The translations under genes were made by a program, and so were the position numbers. Shown here piece by piece: positions 5,401 through 64,000 of a stretch of DNA of 64,000 bases; the stretch's first letter is position 1, and each line of letters begins with the position of its first letter. Source of the stretch: Ginglymostoma cirratum (taxonomy: Eukaryota); NCBI GenBank assembly GCA_024137785.1, contig JAHRHZ010000270.1, positions 31,998,461-32,062,460 on the forward strand, given 5' to 3'. The notes under the pieces are model-generated. The model was not told where the DNA came from. It searched no databases and worked only from the letters and a program-made list of their open reading frames with translations.

Positions 5401-5404
5401 CTAG

Positions 5405-5596
5405 AGATAACAAAGTGTGGAACTGGAGGAACACAGCAGGCTGGGCAGCATTATAGGAACAGAAAAGCTTTTCTGAAGAAGGGTCCTGACCGGAAACATC
5501 AACTTTCCTGTTCCTCTGATGCTGCCTGACCTGCTGTGTTCTTCCAGCTCCACAATGTGTTATCTCTGACTCCAGCATGTGCAGTTTTTGCAATCT
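5405..5596. mobile_element. Miniature fold-back PLE (family A related) with a decayed hammerhead at the apex
   Basis: Arms are mutually inverted. 15-bp TSD CTACCATTGGTCTAG at 5390-5404 and 5597-5611. Core reads CTGAAGA-A-GGGTC-ct-GACCG-GAAA-CA-TC. Confidence 0.85.
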
Positions 5597-17021: not shown

Positions 17022-17674
17022 GATAACAAGGTGTAGAGCTGGATGAACACAGCAGGCCAAGCAGCATCATAGGAGCAAGAAAGCTTGACGTTTCGGGCCT
17101 AGACCCTTCATCAGAAATGGGGGAGGGGAAGAGGGTTCTGAAATAAATAGGGAGAGAGGGGGAGGCGGATAGAGGATGGATAGAGGAGAGGATAGGTGGA
17201 GAGGAGGCAGACAGGTCGAAGAGGCGGGGATGGAGCCAGTAAAGGTGAGTGTAGGTGGGGGGGTAGGGAGGAGATAGGTCAGTCCAGGGAGGACGGACAG
17301 GTCAAGGGGGCGGGATGATGTTAGTAGATAGGAGATGGGGGTGGCGCTTGAGGTGGGAGGAGGGGATAGATGAGAGGAAAAACAGGTTAGGGAGGCGGGG
17401 ACGAGCTGGGCTGGTTTTGGGATGCGGTTGGGGGAGGGGAGATTTTGAAGCTTGTGAAATCCACATTGGTTCCATTGGGCTGCAGGGTTCCCGGGCTGAA
17501 TATGATTTGTTGTTCCTGCTGCCTTCGGGTGGCATCACTATGGCATTGCAGGAGGCCCAGGATGGACATGTCGTCTGAGGACTGGGAGGGGGAGTTGAAA
17601 TGGTTCTCGACTGGGAGGTGCAGTTGTTTGTTGCGAACTGAGCGCAGGTGTTCTGCAAAGCGGTCCCCAAGCCT
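17022..17674 (-). mobile_element. 5'-truncated Neptune-type PLE (family A): GIY-YIG C-terminus plus terminal repeat
   Basis: LGDRFAEHLRSVRNKQLHLPV..HFN peptide is nearly identical to 54280-54568. 11-bp TSD TAAAAATGCCA at 17011-17021 and 17675-17685. Confidence 0.92.
17084..17117 (-). ncRNA. Minimal hammerhead ribozyme, family A, intact core
   Basis: ttt-CTGATGA-A-GGG-tctagg-CCC-GAAA-CG-TC-aag. Confidence 0.75.
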
Positions 17675-19000: not shown

Positions 19001-21690
19001 TCAAAAGAGTAATATGGGAGTGGGATTTGATGTGAGTTAGTATATGGGCAGTAGAGTCCAGATCACTTCAAATTCATGGAGGATGAAACATGCGAATCCT
19101 GCCAGGGACATATTTAAATAATAAAGTCTAGAGGTTACAAAGACAGGGATAAGTCTTGGGTTAGTCATCAGTGAGAGCACTGATCTCAGCCCATAGCACC
19201 GTATAGCAGGAAATGAACATATTTTGAATCAACGTATTCAGCCATGCTAAGGTGGGGATTAAACCCACTCTTTCTGGCCTGGAGGTAGGGATATTACCAC
19301 TGCATCACAAGAACCCTTCTCAGGGTGGTGTATACTGGCCTTGGAGAGGCACATTGCAAATTTGTCAGAATACTATCTGAGCTAAAAGGACAACTCTATC
19401 TGGACACTGACATAAGCTAAATTTGTTTCTCCTTGAATACTGAAAACTAAGGGGTGATTTACTTGACATTTTTGAGCTGATTAAAGAATATGATAGTTAT
19501 CTTCCTCTGTTCAGGGCATCCAGAACACACAAATTTAAAATTAGAGCTAGGTTGATGTCAGGATGCATGTCTTCATACAAAAGGGCCAGGACTCTATCCC
19601 CATCAAAACTGTCATTTGAAAATTGAACTGAAACTAATAAGTCTTTGTTTGCTGGGGTCATTCAACATTATTGGTCCAAGGTGGTTCAGATGGTGCTAAG
19701 GTACAGATTTGCGTGATCTAATGAATGGCAGAAAGAGTTGGGAAGCTGAATGGCCTCCCTCTCATCCTGTGTCCCATAGTCATCCAAGTTAAGAATATAA
19801 AAATGCATCCATAAAAGCTGAAGTCTCATGTGAGAATGTATCAGTACTGTTCCATGTGCACTGCACCACCTAAGCATCTTAACTACAAGATATAATGAAA
19901 ATCTACACTCTATGTATTTATGTGACTTTCACATTTCCATATCACTCTTTGAATCAAGCTGCCAATCGGGATGAATTATTGATCACCTTCTGCTGTCTGA
20001 TCTCAAGCAAAGACCAGTTGACAGCAACCAACAACAGAAATTGAACTTCCATATAACACTTGATCTTTAATCAATACATTTTACAGCCTTACACACCATT
20101 CTAATTAAGGATATAATATATGAAGAAGAATTGTCAGCAAATATGTTGCAATCATATTTTACAGATATAACATTTGATTGTGATGGTGGTTACTTGCAAT
20201 TTAGTTTTTTTATTCCTTTTTAAATATGAGGGGATTGACTTATGGTTGTGGCAGATAGAAGTACTGCAGGATGTTGTTATGTGAAAGCAAAACATAAGAA
20301 GGGGTTGTCAAATTTGAAAGTTGTTTGCTTAGAAGTCAAGGATAATTCTGTACTGAAGGCACAAATGAAAAGTAGGTACAACACTTCAAAGGGGAATCAG
20401 ATAGATGTGCCTAAAACCAATATAATAGCATTGAAACAGTATAACTAATTGATATTGCTCATCTCCAATTAAACATAGTTGTCACAACAATGGGAAAATC
20501 AGCTGAACAAATAGAATTGAAGTCAGCTGAAAGGTAGAAATGAATGCACAATACAATGGATCCTGAATATTTTAACATACACACCAAAATGAAGACAAGA
20601 GCATCCAGAAATAAAATAAGTCAATCAATCCTGTCATTCCAACAAGGAACGTCATTACCACAAAGCAACCAGTGAATCATTGCCATATCTCAGAATTAGT
20701 GCCCAGAATTTGTGTTTTATCTAGTTTGAAGATTAAGAAACTTATGACAAATCTTAGACATGATTTGCGTAGATTCTACTTTGATCTAAGTTTGACACAG
20801 TATCATATTACTGAGAAAAGCCTGACCTATTTTAAGTTACAGTTTAATGAGATTAACTTCTGTTAAATGTTGGGTGGCTAAAATGAATTGCTATTATGAG
20901 GAATATGCCATGACATCCTCAAAACCATGTCGCATATGGGTCTGAAAGAGTTAATACTTGTTCACAGTGCATTGAGCACCACCTACTGTGATGACTACTA
21001 AAATGGTATGAGGACTAGCCTGGGTCTGGGTGGGATGCTCTGAGAGTCAGTGTGGACTTGTTGGGCCGAAGGGCCTGTTTCCACACTGTAGGGATTCTAT
21101 GATTCTATGATCTATGACTAGGCCACAGTAAAAAAGGAGATTGTAGGAAACAGACCTGGGCTTGTAAGCTCTTAACAGTCTCTGCAGTATTGTAGGTCAT
21201 GTTCATGTAATGTGCAGATAGTTGCTGAAATGCAATAAACTTGCTATTGTTGAATTGACAATGTTCGTATAGTTAGACTAGAAAGGTGGATATCCTCATC
21301 TATGCAATGCCACTTTGTGAAGAAGCCAGCACATGTAACATGGTGAGCAGTGGTGTGGTGAATAGCAGTATGATGACTATAGTAGGCCTGCCTCAATGTA
21401 GTGAGCAACAGTGATCAGCATGATTTCTAAATGATGGCTCTTAAGAGAAATTACACTTCTGACCTTCAAAACACAAGGAAGAACATGCAGGTGACCCAGA
21501 TGTCTTCAGATAAAGTTGATTACCGATGACAGTAAACCCGGCAAAACATCACGGCAACACTCAACACAGTGGAATAATTTGAGCATGACATAGAAATCAT
21601 TTTAAACCTGACAGAAGATGCACAGTAACTGAGAAATCTGTAGCTCCAAGGCATTGCAATCAGGCAATAGGTCTGTACAGCAGATATTAT

Positions 21691-21855
21691 CAGGCTAGGA
21701 GGAACTGCAGATGCCGGAGAATCCGAGATAACGAGGTGTAGAGCTGGATGAACACAGCAGGCCAAGCAGCATCAGAGGAGCAGGAAGGCTTGTGCTCTTG
21801 CTCCTCTGATGCTGCTTGGCCTGCTGTGTTCATCCAGCCCTACACCTTGTTATCT
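21691..21855. mobile_element. Miniature fold-back PLE (family A) lacking the ribozyme core
   Basis: Near-perfect ~60-bp arms; 10-bp TSD CAGATATTAT at 21681-21690 and 21856-21865; tail on the left arm only. Confidence 0.88.
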
Positions 21856-22239
21856 CAGATATTATAGGGTGTTAGTCTTTGGAAGTGATTCTGAGTCTGA
21901 GCTGAGCAGCTGAGCTGACCACAAACTGAGAATTGCTCAATATACTGGCAAGAGGAGAAAAATTAAACTTCAGTTAAAAGGGCAGAAATTAAAAAAATAA
22001 ACAAGTTGCAGTTTAAAGTGGGAGTTGGCTCCATAAGACGTGCCACGAGGCAGAACAGGAAAGAAAAATTAAGAATGCCACGAGAGAAAACTCAAATATT
22101 CTGCCTACCAACAACTATGCAATTAGCTCCTAGGTAGGTGAACAGTTGAGAGTGTGAATGTTTTGGCAGAAACCATCAGGCCTCTGGAGAACGTTGTTTT
22201 TGCTCAGTGGTAAACCCATCTCAAGCCTGAAGAAAGCCA

Positions 22240-22425
22240 TGATGTGGAAGTGCCGGTATGGATGGGGGTGGACAAAGTCAGAACTCACATGACACCAGGG
22301 TAGAGTTCAACAGGTTCATTTCAAATCACAAGCTTTCGGATCGTAGCCCCTTCTTCACCTGATGATGGGGCTATGCTCCGAAAGCTTGTGATTTCAAATA
22401 AATCTCTTGGACTATAACCGGGTGT
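22240..22425. mobile_element. Miniature fold-back PLE (family C)
   Basis: Inverted arms; 13-bp TSD CTGAAGAAAGCCA at 22227-22239 and 22426-22438; longer tail on the left arm. Confidence 0.85.
22355..22391 (+). ncRNA. Minimal hammerhead ribozyme, family C
   Basis: Stem I TCAC/GTGA; CTGATGA; stem II GGGGC-tat-GCTCC; GAAA-GC-TT with palindromic AGCT in place of stem III. Confidence 0.75.
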
Positions 22426-23540
22426 CTGAAGAAAGCCAGTTTATTTCCTCTTTCCAGTTGCTGTAAGCTGTGACTTTTAATTTGATGTGTTTGATACATT
22501 TTTAAGAGTGATCCAGACACTCTGTGCCTCCGACAAACAATGGAAAATATCAGGAGAAGAAAGATTGAGAAGCAGCATTCTGATCAGCATAAGGATCATC
22601 TCAGCAAACCCAATGGACAGGGACTACTGAACTGCCTTCCCGGTCTTTCCTTCTACTCAAATGATCCATGAGTTTTTTCCATATCTGTCTGTGTGCATAC
22701 ACGGAAGGGGAGTGTATGTGTGGTTTGAGTTTGAACTAACAGAGATATACGTCAGTGATTTACATTTGTTTACCTGCAGTTAGAATTTATTTATTTGAAA
22801 TAAATAGTCACTTTTGTTAAATACATAGACCTGGTTGATGCTTTCAGTCAATCTGGCTCTAAAAAGACAGGTAAATTGGGGATTTTTGCACATTTTTCAA
22901 AATCTTGACCTTAGTTTTGACTCCAGAAAAAGCAGGTCTTGATTTCCGGCATGGTACCTCAGTGAGGCATATTAAATTTCAGCTATCAATTAACTAGAAT
23001 ACAAAAGTGGACATTCTACCCTGTTACCTAAAAGGACTGGTGGACAAGCACACCATAGTCCCTCTGATCCTTGGTGCTTCCCAGGGTCATATTGTTCATC
23101 ATGCCTTTCCAAAAAGTCCTTGCCAAAACTGTGGAGCAAAGAAACCTCACGGACACAAACAGTGCCCAGCTCCAAAACATAATTTTTTCATTGTACCAAA
23201 GTAAATCACTCCCAGAAAGCATGCCAAAGTAGGACACAGCCACAGGAAAGCAAAAGGGCAAAGAACTACCCACACAAAGAGATAAATGTACTAGGCCAGT
23301 CTTCAGTAGAAGGTAAACCCAAAGTTTTCCGAGGGGAAATCAATAACTCAGCCCAAACATTTTGGCATGTTGACATTTTTGTCAATGGGCATCTTACAAA
23401 TTTCAATTTAGGAACAGGGATAAACATCATATCATTAGATAATGATAATTTTGGTCAACCAAGCTGTTAGAAATTCAACTACAAGGCCTAACGATATCAC
23501 ACAATACATTAACCATATGCTACAAGCAACTCTCCAGAAT

Positions 23541-43144: not shown

Positions 43145-44590
43145 TCATAGAGATGTACAGCCATGGAAAGGGACCCTTCCGTCCAACTCGTTCATGCCAA
43201 CCAGATATCCTAAATTAATCTAGTCCCATTTGTCAGCATTTGGCCCATATCCCTCTAAACCCTTCCTATTCATATACCCATCCAGATGCCTTTTAAATGT
43301 TGTAATTGTACCAGCGTCTACCACTTCCCCTGTCAGCTTGTTCCATACACACACCACTCTTTGCATGAAAAAGTAGCCCCTCACGTCCCTTTTAAATCTT
43401 TCTCCTCTCACCTTCAACCTAGTTTTGGACTCCCCCACCCCAGGGAATATATCTTGGCTATTTACCCTATCCAAGCCCCTCATGATTTTATAAACCTCTA
43501 TAAGGTCACCCCTCAGCCTCTGATGCTCCAGGGAAAACAGCCTCAACCTATTCAGCCTCTCCCTACAGCTCAAACCCTCCAACCCCCACAACATCCTTGG
43601 AAATATTTTCTGAACCTTTCAAGTTTTACAACATCATTCCTATAGCAGGGAGACCAGAATTGCACGCCATATTCCAAAAGGGGCCTCATCAATGTCCTGT
43701 ACAGCCGCAACATGACCTTCCAACTCCTAAACTCAATGCACTGACCAATAAAAGCAAGCTTACCAAGCTTTTTCTTCACTATTCTGTCTACTTGCAATGC
43801 CACTTTCAAGAAACAATGAACCTGCACTTCAAGGTCTCTTTGTTCAGCAACACTCCCCAGCACCTTGCCATTAAGTGTACTGCCCTGATTTGCCTTTCCA
43901 AAATGCAGCACCTCATATTTATCTAAATTAAACTCCATCTGCCACTCCTCAGCCCATTGGCCCATCTGATCAAGATCCCGTTGTACTCGGAGGTAACCTT
44001 CTTCGCTGTCCACTGCAACTCCAGTTTTGCTGTCATCTGCAAACTTACTAACCAAACCTCCTATGTTCACAGCCATATCCATTTATATAAATGATGAAAA
44101 GCAGTGGACCCAGCACCGATCCTTGTCGCACACCGCTCGTCACATGTCTCCAGTCTGGAAAACAACCCTGCACCAACACCCAGAGATATCAAGAACTGCA
44201 GATGCTGCAGTCAGAGGCAACACAGTGTAGAGCTGGAGGATCACAGCAGGCCAGGCAGCATCAGAGGAACAGGAAAGTTGACATTTTGGGTCAGGACATT
44301 TCTTTAGAAATGGGGGAGGTGGATGGGAGCTTAGAAAAAAATAGAGAGAGGGGGGTGGGGCTGGGGAAAGGTAAGTGGGATGGTGATAGGTGAGTGCAGG
44401 TAGGGAGTGGTGGGGATAGGTCAGTGGGATGGGAGGGGCGGCTAGGTGGGAGAGAAGATGGACAGGTTGGTGTCAGGTCAAGGAGGTGGGATGTTACCTT
44501 CACCACCACCCTCTGTCTTGTACCTTCGAGGCAGTTCTGTATCCAAATGGCTAGTTCTCCCTGTATTCCATGTGATCTAATCTTGATAAC
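43145..44590 (-). mobile_element. Relatively young CR1 (HER1-like) LINE 3' portion, interrupted by a PLE fragment
   Basis: SKFADDSK, WQMEFNLDK, RPLLEYGVQFWSP and RLRGDLIEVYKIM motifs. Confidence 0.9.
44182..44495 (-). mobile_element. PLE family A related 3' fragment nested in CR1
   Basis: Tail and purine-rich segment resemble 17022-17310. Imperfect flanking repeat caccaNcaccc. Confidence 0.8.
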
Positions 44591-51640: not shown

Positions 51641-52545
51641 AAACTTTTTTTTATTTATTCATTCATGGGAAGAGGGCATCATTGACTGGGCTAGCATTTA
51701 CTGACCATTCCTAATTTCCCAGATGGTAGTTAAGAATCAGCCATGTTGCTGTGGGTCTGGAGTCATATATCAGCTGGAGCAGGGAAGGCTTCCATTTTCC
51801 TTTATTAAAAGACATTAGGGATAAACTAAAGGAAATTGTTAAAGTAAGGAAGGGCATTGCAAGGACTTTGGAGATGGGTAATAAAAGACTGGACAAGGGG
51901 AGAAGGAATGAGGTTGAAACAGAAAGAAATCAGTTCTGTGAGACATAATTCTCTTTGTCTTTTCCTATCACAGACCTTTCTTTTTGTTCTTTCCTGCTGT
52001 ACCCTCCAACGCCACCCCCAATTACCTGACTACCTCCTCCCCAACCAGCCCCAAGTCTTTATCTACCTCTACACTGGTTTAAAACATGTCACAACTCTAT
52101 TTTCCAATTCTGCTAATAGGCCATTGACCTGAAATTTAACTCTGCATCTCTCTTTCCTCAGATGCTGCCAGATCTGTTGTGTATTTCCAGAATTTTCTGC
52201 TTGTGGCTCAGATTTCCACCATCAGCAGCATTTTGCTTTTGTAGCCTTTGTCTGCCCCTCATTCAATTTTTCACAATCCTCATCATTATCCCCCAAATTT
52301 GGTTTAATCAGCAGATTCCAGTTCAGATTTCTTAAATTCTAGTTCCAGGTCATTGTATTAAAACAAATAATGGTGACCACAGCACAGGTGCCTTTTCATT
52401 AATTTTTAGATTAGGTTTTAGAGCAATATTTTATTGTGATGAGAATGGGATGGGGGATATGAGAATGGACAATGAAAATTCCTAGATAACAAGCATGGGG
52501 CTGGATGAACACAGCAGGTCAAGCAGCATCATAGGAGCAGGAAAG

Positions 52546-52579
52546 CTTGACGTTTCAGGCCTAGACCCTTCATCAGAAA
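52546..52579 (-). ncRNA. Minimal hammerhead ribozyme, family A (left arm)
   Basis: CTGATGA-A-GGG-tctagg-CCT-GAAA-CG-TC-aag, with one C>T change giving a G-U pair. Confidence 0.7.
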
Positions 52580-53163
52580 TGGGGGAGGGGAAGAGGGTTC
52601 TGAAATAAATAGGGAGAGAGGGGGAGGCGGATAGAGGATGGATAGAGGAGAGGATAGGTGGGGAGGAGGCAGACAAGTCGAAGAGGCGGGGATGGAGCCA
52701 GTAAAGGTGAGTGTAGGTAGGGGGGTAGGGAGGAGATAGGTCAGTCCAGGGAGGACGGACAGGTCAAGGGGGCGGGATGATGTTAGTAGATAGGAGATGG
52801 GGGTGTGGCTTGGGGTGAGAGGAAAAACAGGTTAGGGAGGTGGAGATGAGCTGGGCTGGTTTTGGGATGCGGTTGGGGGAGGGGAGATTTTGAAGCTTGT
52901 GAAATCCACATTGATGCCATTGGGCTGCAGGGTTCCCAGGCTGAATATGATTTGCTGTTCCTGCAGCCTTCGGGTGGCATCACTGTGGCATTGTAGGAGG
53001 CCCAGGATTGACATGTCATCTGAGGAATGGGAGGGGGAGTTGAAATGATTCGCGACTGGGAGGTGCAGTTGTTTGTTGCGAACTGAGCGCAGGTGTTCTG
53101 CAAAGCGGTCCCCAAGCCTCTGCTTGGTTTCCCCGATGTAGAGGAAGCCACAACGGGTACAGC

Positions 53164-53563
53164 NNNNNNNNNNNNNNNNNNNNNNNNNNNNNNNNNNNNN
53201 NNNNNNNNNNNNNNNNNNNNNNNNNNNNNNNNNNNNNNNNNNNNNNNNNNNNNNNNNNNNNNNNNNNNNNNNNNNNNNNNNNNNNNNNNNNNNNNNNNNN
53301 NNNNNNNNNNNNNNNNNNNNNNNNNNNNNNNNNNNNNNNNNNNNNNNNNNNNNNNNNNNNNNNNNNNNNNNNNNNNNNNNNNNNNNNNNNNNNNNNNNNN
53401 NNNNNNNNNNNNNNNNNNNNNNNNNNNNNNNNNNNNNNNNNNNNNNNNNNNNNNNNNNNNNNNNNNNNNNNNNNNNNNNNNNNNNNNNNNNNNNNNNNNN
53501 NNNNNNNNNNNNNNNNNNNNNNNNNNNNNNNNNNNNNNNNNNNNNNNNNNNNNNNNNNNNNNN
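53164..53563. other. Assembly gap (400 N)
   Basis: Run of N at the centre of the inverted repeat. Confidence 1.
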
Positions 53564-54568
53564 AACACTTCTCTCTCCTTCCTGGACCTCTCTGTCTCCA
53601 TCTCGGGCAACCACCTAGAGACAGATGTCCATTTCAAGCCCACTGACTCCCACAGCTACCTGGAATACACCTCCTCCCACCCACCCTCCTGCAAAAATGC
53701 CATCCCCTATTCCCAATTCCTTCGCCTCCGCCGCATCTGCTCCCAGGATGAGACATTCCAATCCCGCACATCTCAAATGTCCTCATTCTTCAAGGACCGC
53801 AACTTCCCCCCCACAGTGGTCGAGAACGCCCTCGACCGTGTCTCCCGCATTTCCCGGAACACATCCCTCACGCCCCGTCCCCGCAACAATAATCAAAAAA
53901 GAATCCCCCTCGTCCTCACATACCACCCCACCAACCTCCGGATCCAACGCATCATCCTCCGACACTTCCGCCATCTACAGTCAGACCCCACCACCAAAGA
54001 CATCTTTCCCTCCCCACCCTTATCTGCCTTCCGGAGGGACCACTCCCTCCGCGACTCCCTTGTCCGCGCCACACTCCCCTCCAGCCCCACCACACCCGGC
54101 ACTTTTCCTTGTAACCGCAGGAAGTGCTACACCTGCCCCCACACCTCCTCCCTCACCCCAATCCCAGGCCCCAAGAAGACATTCCACATCAGGCAGAGGT
54201 TCACCTGCACATCTGCCAATGTGGTATACTGCATCCGCTGCACCCGTTGTGGCTTCCTCTACATCGGGGAAACCAAGCGGAGGCTTGGGGACCGCTTTGC
54301 AGAACACCTGCGCTCAGTTCGCAACAAACAACTGCACCTCCCAGTCGCGAACCATTTCAACTCCCCCTCCCATTCCTCAGATGACATGTCCATCCTTGGC
54401 CTCCTACAATGCCACAGTGATGCCACCCGAAGGCTGCAGGAACAGCAAATCATATTCAGCCTGGGAACCCTGCAGCCCAATGGCATCAATGTGGATTTCA
54501 CAAGTTTCAAAATCTCCCCTCCCCCAACCGCATCCCAAAACCAGCCCAGCTCATCTCCACCTCCCTAA
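53564..54568 (+). CDS. PLE polyprotein C-terminal part: RT thumb, Cys-rich linker and GIY-YIG endonuclease (5' end lost in the gap)
   Basis: 334 stop-free codons: SFLDLSV, FKPTDSHSYLEYTSSHP, IPYSQFLRLRRICS, PCNRRKCYTCPH, FTCTSANVVYCIRCTRCGFLYIGETKRRLGDRFAEH, LQPNGIN. Confidence 0.92.
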   Translation, partial: NTSLSFLDLSVSISGNHLETDVHFKPTDSHSYLEYTSSHPPSCKNAIPYSQFLRLRRICSQDETFQSRTSQMSSFFKDRNFPPTVVENALDRVSRISRNTSLTPRPRNNNQKRIPLVLTYHPTNLRIQRIILRHFRHLQSDPTTKDIFPSPPLSAFRRDHSLRDSLVRATLPSSPTTPGTFPCNRRKCYTCPHTSSLTPIPGPKKTFHIRQRFTCTSANVVYCIRCTRCGFLYIGETKRRLGDRFAEHLRSVRNKQLHLPVANHFNSPSHSSDDMSILGLLQCHSDATRRLQEQQIIFSLGTLQPNGINVDFTSFKISPPPTASQNQPSSSPPP

Positions 54569-54820
54569 CCTGTTTTTCCTCTCACCTCAAGCCACACCCC
54601 CCTCTCCTATCTACTAACATCATCCCGCCCCCTTGACCTGTCCGTCCTCCCTGGACTGACCTATCTCCTCCCTACCCCCCTACCTACCCTCACTTTTACT
54701 GGCTCCATCCCCGCCTCTTCGACTTGTCTGCCTCCTCCCCACCTATCCTCTCCTCTATCCATCCTCTATCCGCCTCCCCCTCTCTTCCTATTTATTTCAG
54801 AACCCTCTTCCCCTCCCCCA

Positions 54821-54854
54821 TTTCTGATGAAGGGTCTAGGCCCGAAACGTCAAG
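54821..54854 (+). ncRNA. Minimal hammerhead ribozyme, family A (right arm), intact core
   Basis: ttt-CTGATGA(54824-54830)-A-GGG-tctagg-CCC-GAAA-CG-TC|aag. Predicted cleavage after 54851. Confidence 0.78.
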
Positions 54855-55626
54855 CTTTCCTGCTCCTATGATGCTGCTTGACCTGCTGTGTTCATCCAGC
54901 CCCATGCTTGTTATCTCGGATTCTCCAGCATCTGCAGTACCTTTTATCTCTAATGAAAATTCCTAAACCGTTTCATGAGTTGGCTTTTGCTCTCTCTCTA
55001 AGAGGGAGTTGGGACATAGGGGAAGCATAGCAGGGTGAGCACAAGGGACAAAATTATCTTTTCTTTCCCTGATAATTTGGATGATTTTCAGCACAAAGTT
55101 GTAAAGTGTAGCAATTGATACAACTCCAAAAACTGAAGCCAGGAGCGGAAGTGAAAGGAAAAGACGAAAGGGCTACAATGAGTTATTATACTGGATTTAT
55201 CAGCCATAATTCTGCAGCTGTACAGACCAAGAACCATCATAGCATCCCATTCTCTTCATGAAACTGTGATTGCTTTCACTGTTGATGTTAGCCTGCATCT
55301 ATAAATCCTTGTAGTCAATCATTCAAAGAATTGGTTAGGGCTGAAACAAAGACTGAAGTCAATTTCCTTTGTGCTACTGACAGCGAACCACTTTAAATTG
55401 AGACATATAACTCTGAATTGCTGCGGCCACACTAAATCCTCAGTTTGTTTTGATGAATCAATATGACCAGCATTTTTCATTTTCAATAACATCAATTGCC
55501 TATTCACGCCTCACATGCATGAATAATTGCCATTGTGAATTTTGTAAGCAGTCTAACTCCACTAGTATATGACTAGTTTACTCATTTCTCTTATTTCCTT
55601 AGGTTGTAACTTAGTTCAAATAGGTA

Positions 55627-62148: not shown

Positions 62149-64000
62149 CAAGTTATCTCTGCTATAACGCGTGTTTCACCAATGTGAATTGGCTACAGTG
62201 CAACTGACGAATAGGGGAACGTTATTTCTAAAGCGCGAAGTTGTGTTAACTATAACGCGATTCCATCGGTGTGCAGAGGAGTACGCGTTGACATCACATG
62301 ATCATTTCGCAGGCTTTGTCCTGAGCATGCTCAATGTTAGCACCGAAAGAGTCTCCGCTCCAGCATCACATGATTGTTTTGCAGATTTTGTCATGAAGCA
62401 CTTTCTGTCACAGGTACAGCACTCTGTGATTTTCGGGTTTTTTTTGCAAATTCTGCCATGTTACCCACGAAAATGCGAAGACAAAGTGACAAGAAGTGTC
62501 TGGGTGACAAAATTGCGGGTGGAAAATGTAGAAGAAAGGCTGTATCACTGCGAGAGAAGCTAGATGTTATAAAGGGTTTTAAGTGTGATGAGACAACACG
62601 TGAGAAAGTTTGCGTAACAGGAATAAACGAATCTACCTTACACACTATTAGTAACAACACAGGAAAGATTAAAGCAACCTGCATTGCTGAAACAAGTCTG
62701 AGTGCGAGCAAATCTGTGAGATCATGGACAAAGGAATTTGAGGAGATGGAGCGGCTTCTAAGTGTGTGGATAGAAGATCTGTGGCCACCTCTCTCAGCAT
62801 AAAAGAGGAAGCCTTATCATTTTATGAAGATCTAACAAAAAAAGCTGAAACTCCTGCAGATGTGCATGCCTTTAGTGCTAGCAGTGGCTGGTTTGCTGGT
62901 TTTAAGAACTGCTATGCTTTTTATAACATAAAGTTATGTGGCAAAGCTGCCAGTACAGACGAGGAGCATGCAATGGCATTTCCTCCCGTAGTAAAAGAAT
63001 TAAATGTTGAAGAAGGCTACAACGTAGATCAAATTTTCAATTTAGATAAGACAGGCTTATACTGGAAGTGAATGCCATCAAGAACCTACATTTCTATGAA
63101 TGAAGCACATGCTCCAGGCTTTAAGGTGGCAAAGGATCATATGACTGTGCTGCTGGGTGCCAATGCCAGCGGAGACCTAAAGCTTAAGCCTGTGGTGGTG
63201 TACCACTCTGCCAACCCGTGAGCCTTGAAAGTTTACCTTAAGTCAATTCTAGGCGTCTACTTTAGGTCAAGCAAAAGATGATGGGGCAATTTTTCTCTGA
63301 ACCTATTGTTGATGTTTTGGAAGATGTTTTTACAAAGTATTACAGGAAAAAAAAATTCAAGATTCTCCTCATCCAGGATAATATGCCACTGAGAGGGTTA
63401 AGGACAGTGTTCTTCAATTTTGGAAGAGCTTTAATATCAAGAATACAATTGACATTATCATGGAGGCCTGGGGTGATGTTAGGAAGGACTGCTTGCATGC
63501 AGTTTGGTGGAAGCATCTCCCAGATTTTTTTCAAGATTTTAAAATGTTTGATCCGTCAGAGGAGCTCCCAAGAACCAAAGAACATTGTGTCAATCTTGCA
63601 AAGCAAGTTGGATTTGAAGAAGTGCAGAGTGAAGATGTTGAAGAGCTGCTGGCATCCCACTGTGAAGACGTCTCTACAGCTGATCTACAACAGCTTGTTG
63701 CTGAAGGGGAAGTGGAAGCTGGAGACGAAGCCCAGAATACAGCACCACAAGAGCTTTCTACTTCTGTTTTGTCTTCTATCCTGAGGGTAACTGAGAAGCA
63801 GTGGCAGCTCTTAAAGGTCAATGATTACAATGTAGAATGCAGCAGGATAGCAGTTCATGGAATAAGATCTTATTTGGCACCCTATGAACAGCTTCTTCAT
63901 GAAAAAAAAGGTAAAACAGCAAAAGGTGGATGTCTTTTTTAAGCCAACCCCAAAGAAACAGTCAGAAGACAATGAACCACAGCCATCCAACTCTGGATTA
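62149..64000 (+). mobile_element. Tigger/pogo DNA transposon, running off the window edge
   Basis: TIR-like left end with repeated tataacgcg, followed by transposase remnants. Confidence 0.88.
62458..63942 (+). pseudogene. Inactivated Tigger transposase (psq-HTH, CENP-B HTH, DDE)
   Basis: RRKAVSLREKLDVIK, MERLLSVWIED, FSASSGWFAGFK, IFNLDKTGLYWK*MPSRTYI, TVLLGANASGDLKLKP, LLIQDN. Contains stops, frameshifts and an internal deletion after DN. Confidence 0.92.

Follow-up and report, generated by a model that had tools for sequence, protein, structure and literature searches.

Copies of a Penelope-like retrotransposon family in Ginglymostoma cirratum are usually made from uncut RNA, and a minority class of head-to-tail junctions resumes at the predicted cut site of the hammerhead ribozyme in the family's terminal repeat; cleavage in vivo is the likely cause of this class. 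The window (the whole 64,000-nucleotide stretch that was analyzed) contains, at 21691-21860, an inverted, 5'-truncated insertion of this element with a 10-bp target duplication. This locus is ordinary, a stub like many others from a known class of retrotransposon. It was probably produced as a short inverted insertion in which both target strands were primed, and the question whether its template belonged to the minority of RNA cut by the hammerhead is evenly balanced.

Positions in the element are numbered relative to the predicted hammerhead cut, +1 being the base directly after GTC. The two arms of 21691-21860 pair over 65 nt each (21721-21785 and 21796-21860), are 94% complementary and are separated by 10 nt. 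The features of the locus, read from the sequence, are as follows:

21681-21690, no strand: target-site duplication, left copy, CAGATATTAT
21691-21791, minus strand: long arm, a sense copy of the terminal repeat that spans +1 (21791) to about +101 and takes in the ~34-nt tail (also motif scan; locus L001, +1 to +102)
21792-21795, no strand: junction linker of 3-4 nt, non-element
21796-21860, plus strand: short inverted arm, covering the terminal repeat between about +6/+7 and +70 (locus L001, +6 to +70)
21856-21865, no strand: target-site duplication, right copy, CAGATATTAT

The earlier note had placed the junction at about 21791/21792, within 1 nt of the predicted scissile bond, and this agrees with our reading that the long arm begins at +1 or 1 nt before it; base 21792 is also identical to C17 (-1), a match that chance would give 1 time in 4. 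Its statement that no core is retained is borne out by the motif scan, which found the hammerhead in the terminal repeat of the family and found no core in the truncated copy. The extent of the short arm, the linker and the CAGATATTAT duplication are additional to that note. Neither arm goes more than one base beyond the cut site, and the last 5 nt of the short arm are common to the right target duplication. The joint contains the linker and shows no microhomology. The linker resembles a slipped re-copy of the adjacent GAGCA, such as slippage could produce. We infer that the long arm is cDNA primed at the +101 start site and that the short arm was primed on the opposite target strand, at the +67 start site. 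The copy carries the CTCTG variant, which mostly accompanies a weaker helix I.

To characterize the family, we used a reference copy in the same window, for which the features are:

53564-54565, plus strand: C-terminal part of the ORF, with cysteine-rich linker and GIY-YIG endonuclease domain (PF01541, E=1.5e-5)
54789-54796, plus strand: TATA-like TATTTATT, 31 nt 5' of an initiator-like A (putative promoter role)
54818-54824, plus strand: initiator-like CCATTTC, whose A at 54820 (-32) is the main 5'-end peak (5'-end count)
54824-54854, plus strand: minimal type I hammerhead core, in which helix III is the palindrome ACGU and the predicted cut follows 54851 (motif scan)

PF01541 scored above its cut-off at 53564-54565, as is characteristic of EN+ Penelope-like elements; the window holds only the C-terminal part of the ORF, and an N gap lies before it. 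The family could be assigned to the Penelope-like retrotransposons because this GIY-YIG ORF adjoins the hammerhead repeat. The cysteine-rich linker preceding GIY-YIG corresponds to the Zn-finger-like motif between RT and EN in Neptune elements, and by this motif alone the family is Neptune-type. The 3' ends of the arms lie at +66 to +68 and +100 to +103, ~34 nt apart, and both inverted and tandem forms were seen, in line with the tail of 30-40 nt at one end and the tandem or inverted terminal repeats of EN+ Penelope-like elements. Intact cores with GAAACGTC/AAGCT (slash at the cut) were located by motif scan at 54824-54851, 52549-52576 and 17087-17114. They possess CUGANGA, GAAA, UH, helix II and a palindromic helix III, the components of a minimal type I hammerhead; Rfam gave no match at the gathering score. 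Helix I has 2-4 bp (3 bp in the reference copy, with 54821-54823), the ribozyme fold with helices I and II reaches -2.6 kcal/mol versus -9.3 kcal/mol for another hairpin, and cofolding did not yield the ribozyme dimer.

The family is abundant: one family 30-mer has 31,591 exact matches in the 4.36-Gb genome, and fold-back matches, with 24-48 nt between fixed anchors, number 599 per strand, including a few assembly duplicates. A long inverted insertion of the same family (family A) occupies 52480-54950, with the GIY-YIG part on both strands and an N gap splitting the insertion. A MITE or amplified fold-back DNA transposon was rejected, as internal junctions differ from copy to copy and identical ones recur at microhomology sites. 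A non-LTR retrozyme was rejected as well: such elements have tandem units with complete hammerheads, whereas 21691-21860 is a single inverted unit without a core. The window also contains a second hammerhead-bearing repeat family, with a fold-back at 22291-22426 (67-nt arms, 82%, 2 nt apart), both arms of which stop at the front edge of the core, as in the main peak of family A. The junction search repeated in this second family gave 0 matches and carries no weight either way. ORF remnants are present at 2063-2668, which we take to be a second Penelope endonuclease (no Pfam match), at 43570-44082, presumably a LINE reverse transcriptase, and at 63382-63942, presumably a DNA-transposon transposase.

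The distribution of ordinary 5' ends was examined in copies sampled via a 3' anchor, which is blind to the 5' end and cannot see arms ending 3' of +22. The 5' end was resolved in 200 of 266 arms; the other 66 comprised 45 long arms, 19 in N gaps (7 visibly passing the site and 12 undecided) and 2 at an edge. Altogether 88 of the 200 resolved arms end at -35 to -27, that is, 27-35 nt 5' of the cut, and the strongest peak is at -33 to -31 (46/200). Only 6 arms of 200 end at -1 to +1, against a background of 3.9 (p=0.19). The sharp peak at GTC that the earlier note predicted over all truncation and inversion breakpoints is therefore absent. The cut site is passed by 214 of 245 arms and by 37 of 39 inverted elements, and in none of these 39, which were unselected, does the longest reach end at -1 to +1. 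Thus, the usual template is uncut RNA. A sample aimed at -4 to +10 (the first 100 of 2,762 matches, of which 5 internal deletions and 2 ends at +11 were dropped, leaving 93) was also flat, with 9/93 at 0 (expected 6.2, p=0.17; chi-square p=0.48) and 18/93 at -1 to +1 (expected 18.6). The lack of enrichment at the site that was named beforehand as evidence against cleavage was accordingly found for ordinary ends, which show no significant excess there, and in the aimed sample, but head-to-tail junctions peak there sharply (see below). The strong form of the proposal, in which short copies of the family would normally be made from the 3' cleavage product, could call on 21691-21860 and on this minority class; given the arms and inverted elements that keep sequence 5' of the cut and the main peak at -33 to -31, it has almost no chance of being right.

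Transcription probably starts at the initiator-like A (-32). The CCATTTC and TATA-like motifs resemble the initiator and TATA consensus. In Drosophila Penelope, the start site is in the terminal repeat and the promoter is internal and TATA-less (PMC2377424). Many ends lie at -31 with an extra T, as slippage or base addition by the enzyme at the end of the template would produce. Two runs of RNA reads, both unstranded and one with <500 reads, showed no sharp start or end at -32 or +1; the well-covered run is probably dominated by read-through of embedded copies. Fold-back joints in RNA reads only mirror the genomic peak at -35 to -27.

We considered whether the position of the junction in 21691-21860 could be due to chance truncation. 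Background ends amount to about 1.3 per nt per 200 arms, and at a rate of 6/200 the chance that a window with about 8 arms holds at least one arm at -1 to +1 is about 0.22; hence, the position of a single event is not beyond chance. One junction alone is no fossil of a template released by self-cleavage, as had been claimed for this copy, and what survives of that claim is the minority class that peaks at the site. A second arm in the window (5404-5470) likewise stops at the cut site. It is the short arm of an older family-A fold-back (5404-5586) whose long arm runs from -31 and includes the core, so that the cut-site end lies next to an uncut partner; a target duplication of ~14 bp flanks this element. 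For 21691-21860 alone, chance truncation is an even call. Its joint, with a linker instead of microhomology, speaks against it. Copying of this locus from cut RNA stands level too, and is placed there because its variant goes with weaker helix I.

At the level of the family, an alternative would dispense with the cut class altogether: cDNAs of uncut RNA would be trimmed past the core, and the excess at +1 would result from microhomology at its A/G-rich palindromic bases. Fold-backs whose partner arm stops short, the group to which 21691-21860 belongs, also peak sharply at the site, but most of those at 0 carry microhomology, which lends this alternative some support. In a count by eye among 100 of 534 matches, with hairpins set aside, 10 of 31 such fold-backs start at 0 and 3 at -1, the baseline being about 2 per position. 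The excess at 0 has p=7e-5, or p=0.07 if microhomology triples the weight, and 8 of the 10 position-0 fold-backs among the matches listed carry 1-3 nt of microhomology. The share of such fold-back ends that is in excess is 54-69%. Perfect hairpins point in the same direction. A 6-bp palindrome begins at +1, and 66 perfect hairpins are centred on it versus 19 on the 4-bp ACGT palindrome; the non-palindromic variant occurs in none of the 50 perfect hairpins listed. Perfect +1 hairpins therefore track the palindrome and were rejected as evidence of cleavage. Paired identical hairpins ~440 bp apart were rejected as multimers, since 6 of 6 examined were one hairpin flanking a 400-N gap. The near-perfect hairpins L246-L251 appear twice, once on each side of a 400-N gap; this assembly artefact also hides young fold-backs. 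As hairpins are doubled at assembly gaps, the fold-back and hairpin counts are somewhat inflated.

The evidence for a cut class comes from head-to-tail junctions. Two sampled copies have a body-start piece joined head to tail onto +1, and a genome-wide search identified 27 junctions of this type, while 77 more resume at about -22 to -40. Junctions with three different left ends were counted, with positions assigned by eye. Near +140 (about +138), 13 of 14 among the 27 resume at -1 to +1 and one at -8, which over a visible range of 21 positions corresponds to p about 1e-10. Near +101, with right ends at -10 to +6, 19 of 48 among the matches listed (100 of 124 for this class) resume at -1 to +1 (p=3e-4). 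Near +67, the figure is 11 of 28 loci (p=8e-5), or 8/28 when cases with TC microhomology are removed (p=0.008). The sequences of the three left ends are different from one another, and among the +1 joints several are blunt or have an extra A. In the 27 matches, the 3-nt microhomology product, which repair would favour, is missing. The alternative based on trimming and microhomology leaves unexplained the blunt +1 joints from three unrelated left ends, the lack of its best product and the behaviour of partner segments described next, and we regard it as rather improbable.

Where other segments of the same insertion come to within 25 nt, they go past the site in 4 of 11 insertions of the site type (3/10 once a duplicated locus is merged), compared with 22 of 22 of the front-edge type (p=8e-5). 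For inverted partners alone, the contrast is weaker (4/11 versus 14/18, p=0.048). At locus L310, both arms carry the +1 junction but the number of added A is not the same, in keeping with run-off and restart and not with a single circle, and two further loci in the +101 class show a +1 junction on both arms by their listed matches. A flanking direct repeat of at least 7 nt was found in 13 of 17 site-type composites, and none of the 17 has an old core upstream; therefore, these composites represent single insertions, not insertions into older copies. On the same grounds, nested insertion at a cut site in DNA was rejected for the +140 class. Subfamilies with longer helix I have site-type junctions at a higher rate (11:24 versus 5:47, p=0.02). 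These junctions make up about 16% of the class at +129 to +149; for ordinary ends, the excess does not go beyond about 4%.

It should be noted that in the +101 class a hot spot at -17 is larger than that at the cut site (about 35 of 100 listed matches, by eye), and over all 100 listed matches the excess at the site has only p=0.03. The -17 hot spot has nothing to do with the ribozyme. It lies in the helix II loop (for example, G000:C4:37197431-37197491), where the 3' end of a young subfamily is often joined to an older core. By eye, many -17 matches join two subfamilies, and 15 site-type matches with the ATG variant have matching tails. Nested insertion is a plausible source of this hot spot, and insertions into older copies may favour -17. 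Single insertions (L296, L299, L305, L047 and L289) contain repeated restarts near +140, immediately 5' of the ORF ATG, and the other subfamily favours +129 as the restart point. Short head-to-tail arrays with 59-102-nt units of the core-less repeat were also found among the search results (G000:C51:1904617-1905221, C13:52164079-52164231 and C289:11274324-11274478).

A different source of sharp junctions would be the reverse transcriptase itself. All templates could be uncut, with the enzyme stalling at the base of a hairpin or at a protein-bound ribozyme, followed by restart or joining. For the T7/AAG subfamily but not for A7/AG, RNAfold predicts a hairpin of -9.3 kcal/mol with +1 in its last pair, and for the front 43 nt the lowest-energy fold is this hairpin closing at +1, not the ribozyme. 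Because the hairpin is limited to the same subfamilies, it explains the subfamily trend too, and this trend does not separate cleavage from stalling. A stably folded, protein-bound RNA could block both arms. In addition, cleavage is dispensable in the anole element (PMC11167929), and minimal hammerheads cleave poorly in vitro (PMC4209133). Yet a stall is expected to act per arm and to scatter over several bases, whereas other segments also stop in 7 of 11 site-type insertions versus 0 of 22 front-edge insertions, some at +1 on both arms, and the extra A at joints suggests run-off from a real end. The single-base sharpness, the added bases and the limits common to both arms thus favour a real RNA end over a stall, which is the main rival but which we consider unlikely.

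A circularized cut product, copied round more than once, was also considered. Circular RNA has been proposed for Penelope hammerheads (PMC4209133) and retrozymes. L304 repeats one junction twice with a private variant common to both, and the listed matches include short head-to-tail arrays of +1 to +65 and +2 to +104 units, as a circle might produce. However, left ends range from +65 to +144 without a terminal hammerhead NUH triplet, a single insertion can have a different left end at each of its two junctions (L310 and a C13 pair), and no such joint occurs among the 15 RNA-read joints listed, 198 more being present and the well-covered library being poly(A)-selected. A circular template is accordingly very improbable.

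The preferred reading, in which a minority of the RNA is cleaved, could operate as follows. Transcription would start at -32, so that the hammerhead would sit at the very front of an RNA that mostly stays uncut. The reverse transcriptase would begin within the first terminal repeat, using +67 for one strand and +101 for the other, and copy to the RNA 5' end, after which repair would trim and then join the two cDNA ends. In the minority of events with cut RNA, both cDNAs would stop at +1 or short of it. Run-off at the +1 end and restart at +67, +101 or +140 would create a head-to-tail junction that keeps the cut position. In its full form, with germ-line cleavage of a minority of the RNA, use of the uncapped 3' product as template, and restarts that mark the scissile bond and may build partial tandems, this scheme is favoured by a small measure.

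The element and its architecture are already known; the minority footprint looks real and makes the in vivo question testable. In the literature searched, which included few subscription papers, no breakpoint map of this kind was found. The results for this family are relevant to two questions, namely in vivo cleavage by minimal Penelope hammerheads and the possible retrotransposition of RNA that has been cut. Junction classes provide an inexpensive genomic test applicable to any genome rich in Penelope elements, and they predict two 5' ends, a capped one at -32 and a 5'-OH at +1. Cleavage is not the main route, and restart offers a mechanism for partial tandems. If the reading is true, genomes preserve a record from which in vivo cleavage can be counted for each subfamily.

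The family shares with EN+ Penelope-like elements (PMC8557442) the C-terminal GIY-YIG domain, the terminal-repeat hammerhead, the inverted truncated partner, the tail and partial tandems, and with their Neptune clade the cysteine-rich linker before the endonuclease. An inverted, 5'-truncated partner with a 30-40-bp tail is known for Penelope-like elements from the same source; unlike the copies described there, the arms of 21691-21860 consist of the terminal repeat only, without a core. Anolis Poseidon PAc (PMC11167929) likewise has two internal start sites about 34 nt apart with both strands primed, and uncut RNA is its dominant template, as here. Cleavage is not needed in PAc and no RNA-seq ends were seen at its hammerhead site, whereas a minority of genomic junctions in the shark family falls on the cut site. 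The hammerhead of the shark family lies at the inferred transcript start with the ORF about 140 nt past the cut; the PAc ORF begins within the ribozyme. With the minimal hammerheads of Penelope-like elements (Cervera and de la Pena 2014, PMC4209133), the family has in common the type I core, the lack of a helix III loop and the predicted dimer. Those hammerheads are described as weak, with cleavage by the dimer and with in vivo evidence stated to be absent (reviewed in PMC6765202), and in Schistosoma opposite-strand hammerhead pairs occur 100-700 bp apart (PMC4209133). Compared with the circles proposed there, the shark junctions fit run-off and restart better, and they are a minority only. 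Non-LTR retrozymes (bioRxiv 10.64898/2026.07.22.740005) are similar in being non-autonomous, pLTR-derived and possibly tandem, but their units keep the whole hammerhead, whereas 21691-21860 and the +1 arrays are core-less. Finally, the HDV-like ribozyme of R2 (PMC3774820) is a precedent for a cut site mirrored in genomic 5' junctions; in R2 the cut is the normal 5' end, whereas the normal end of the shark family lies 32 nt 5' of the cut.
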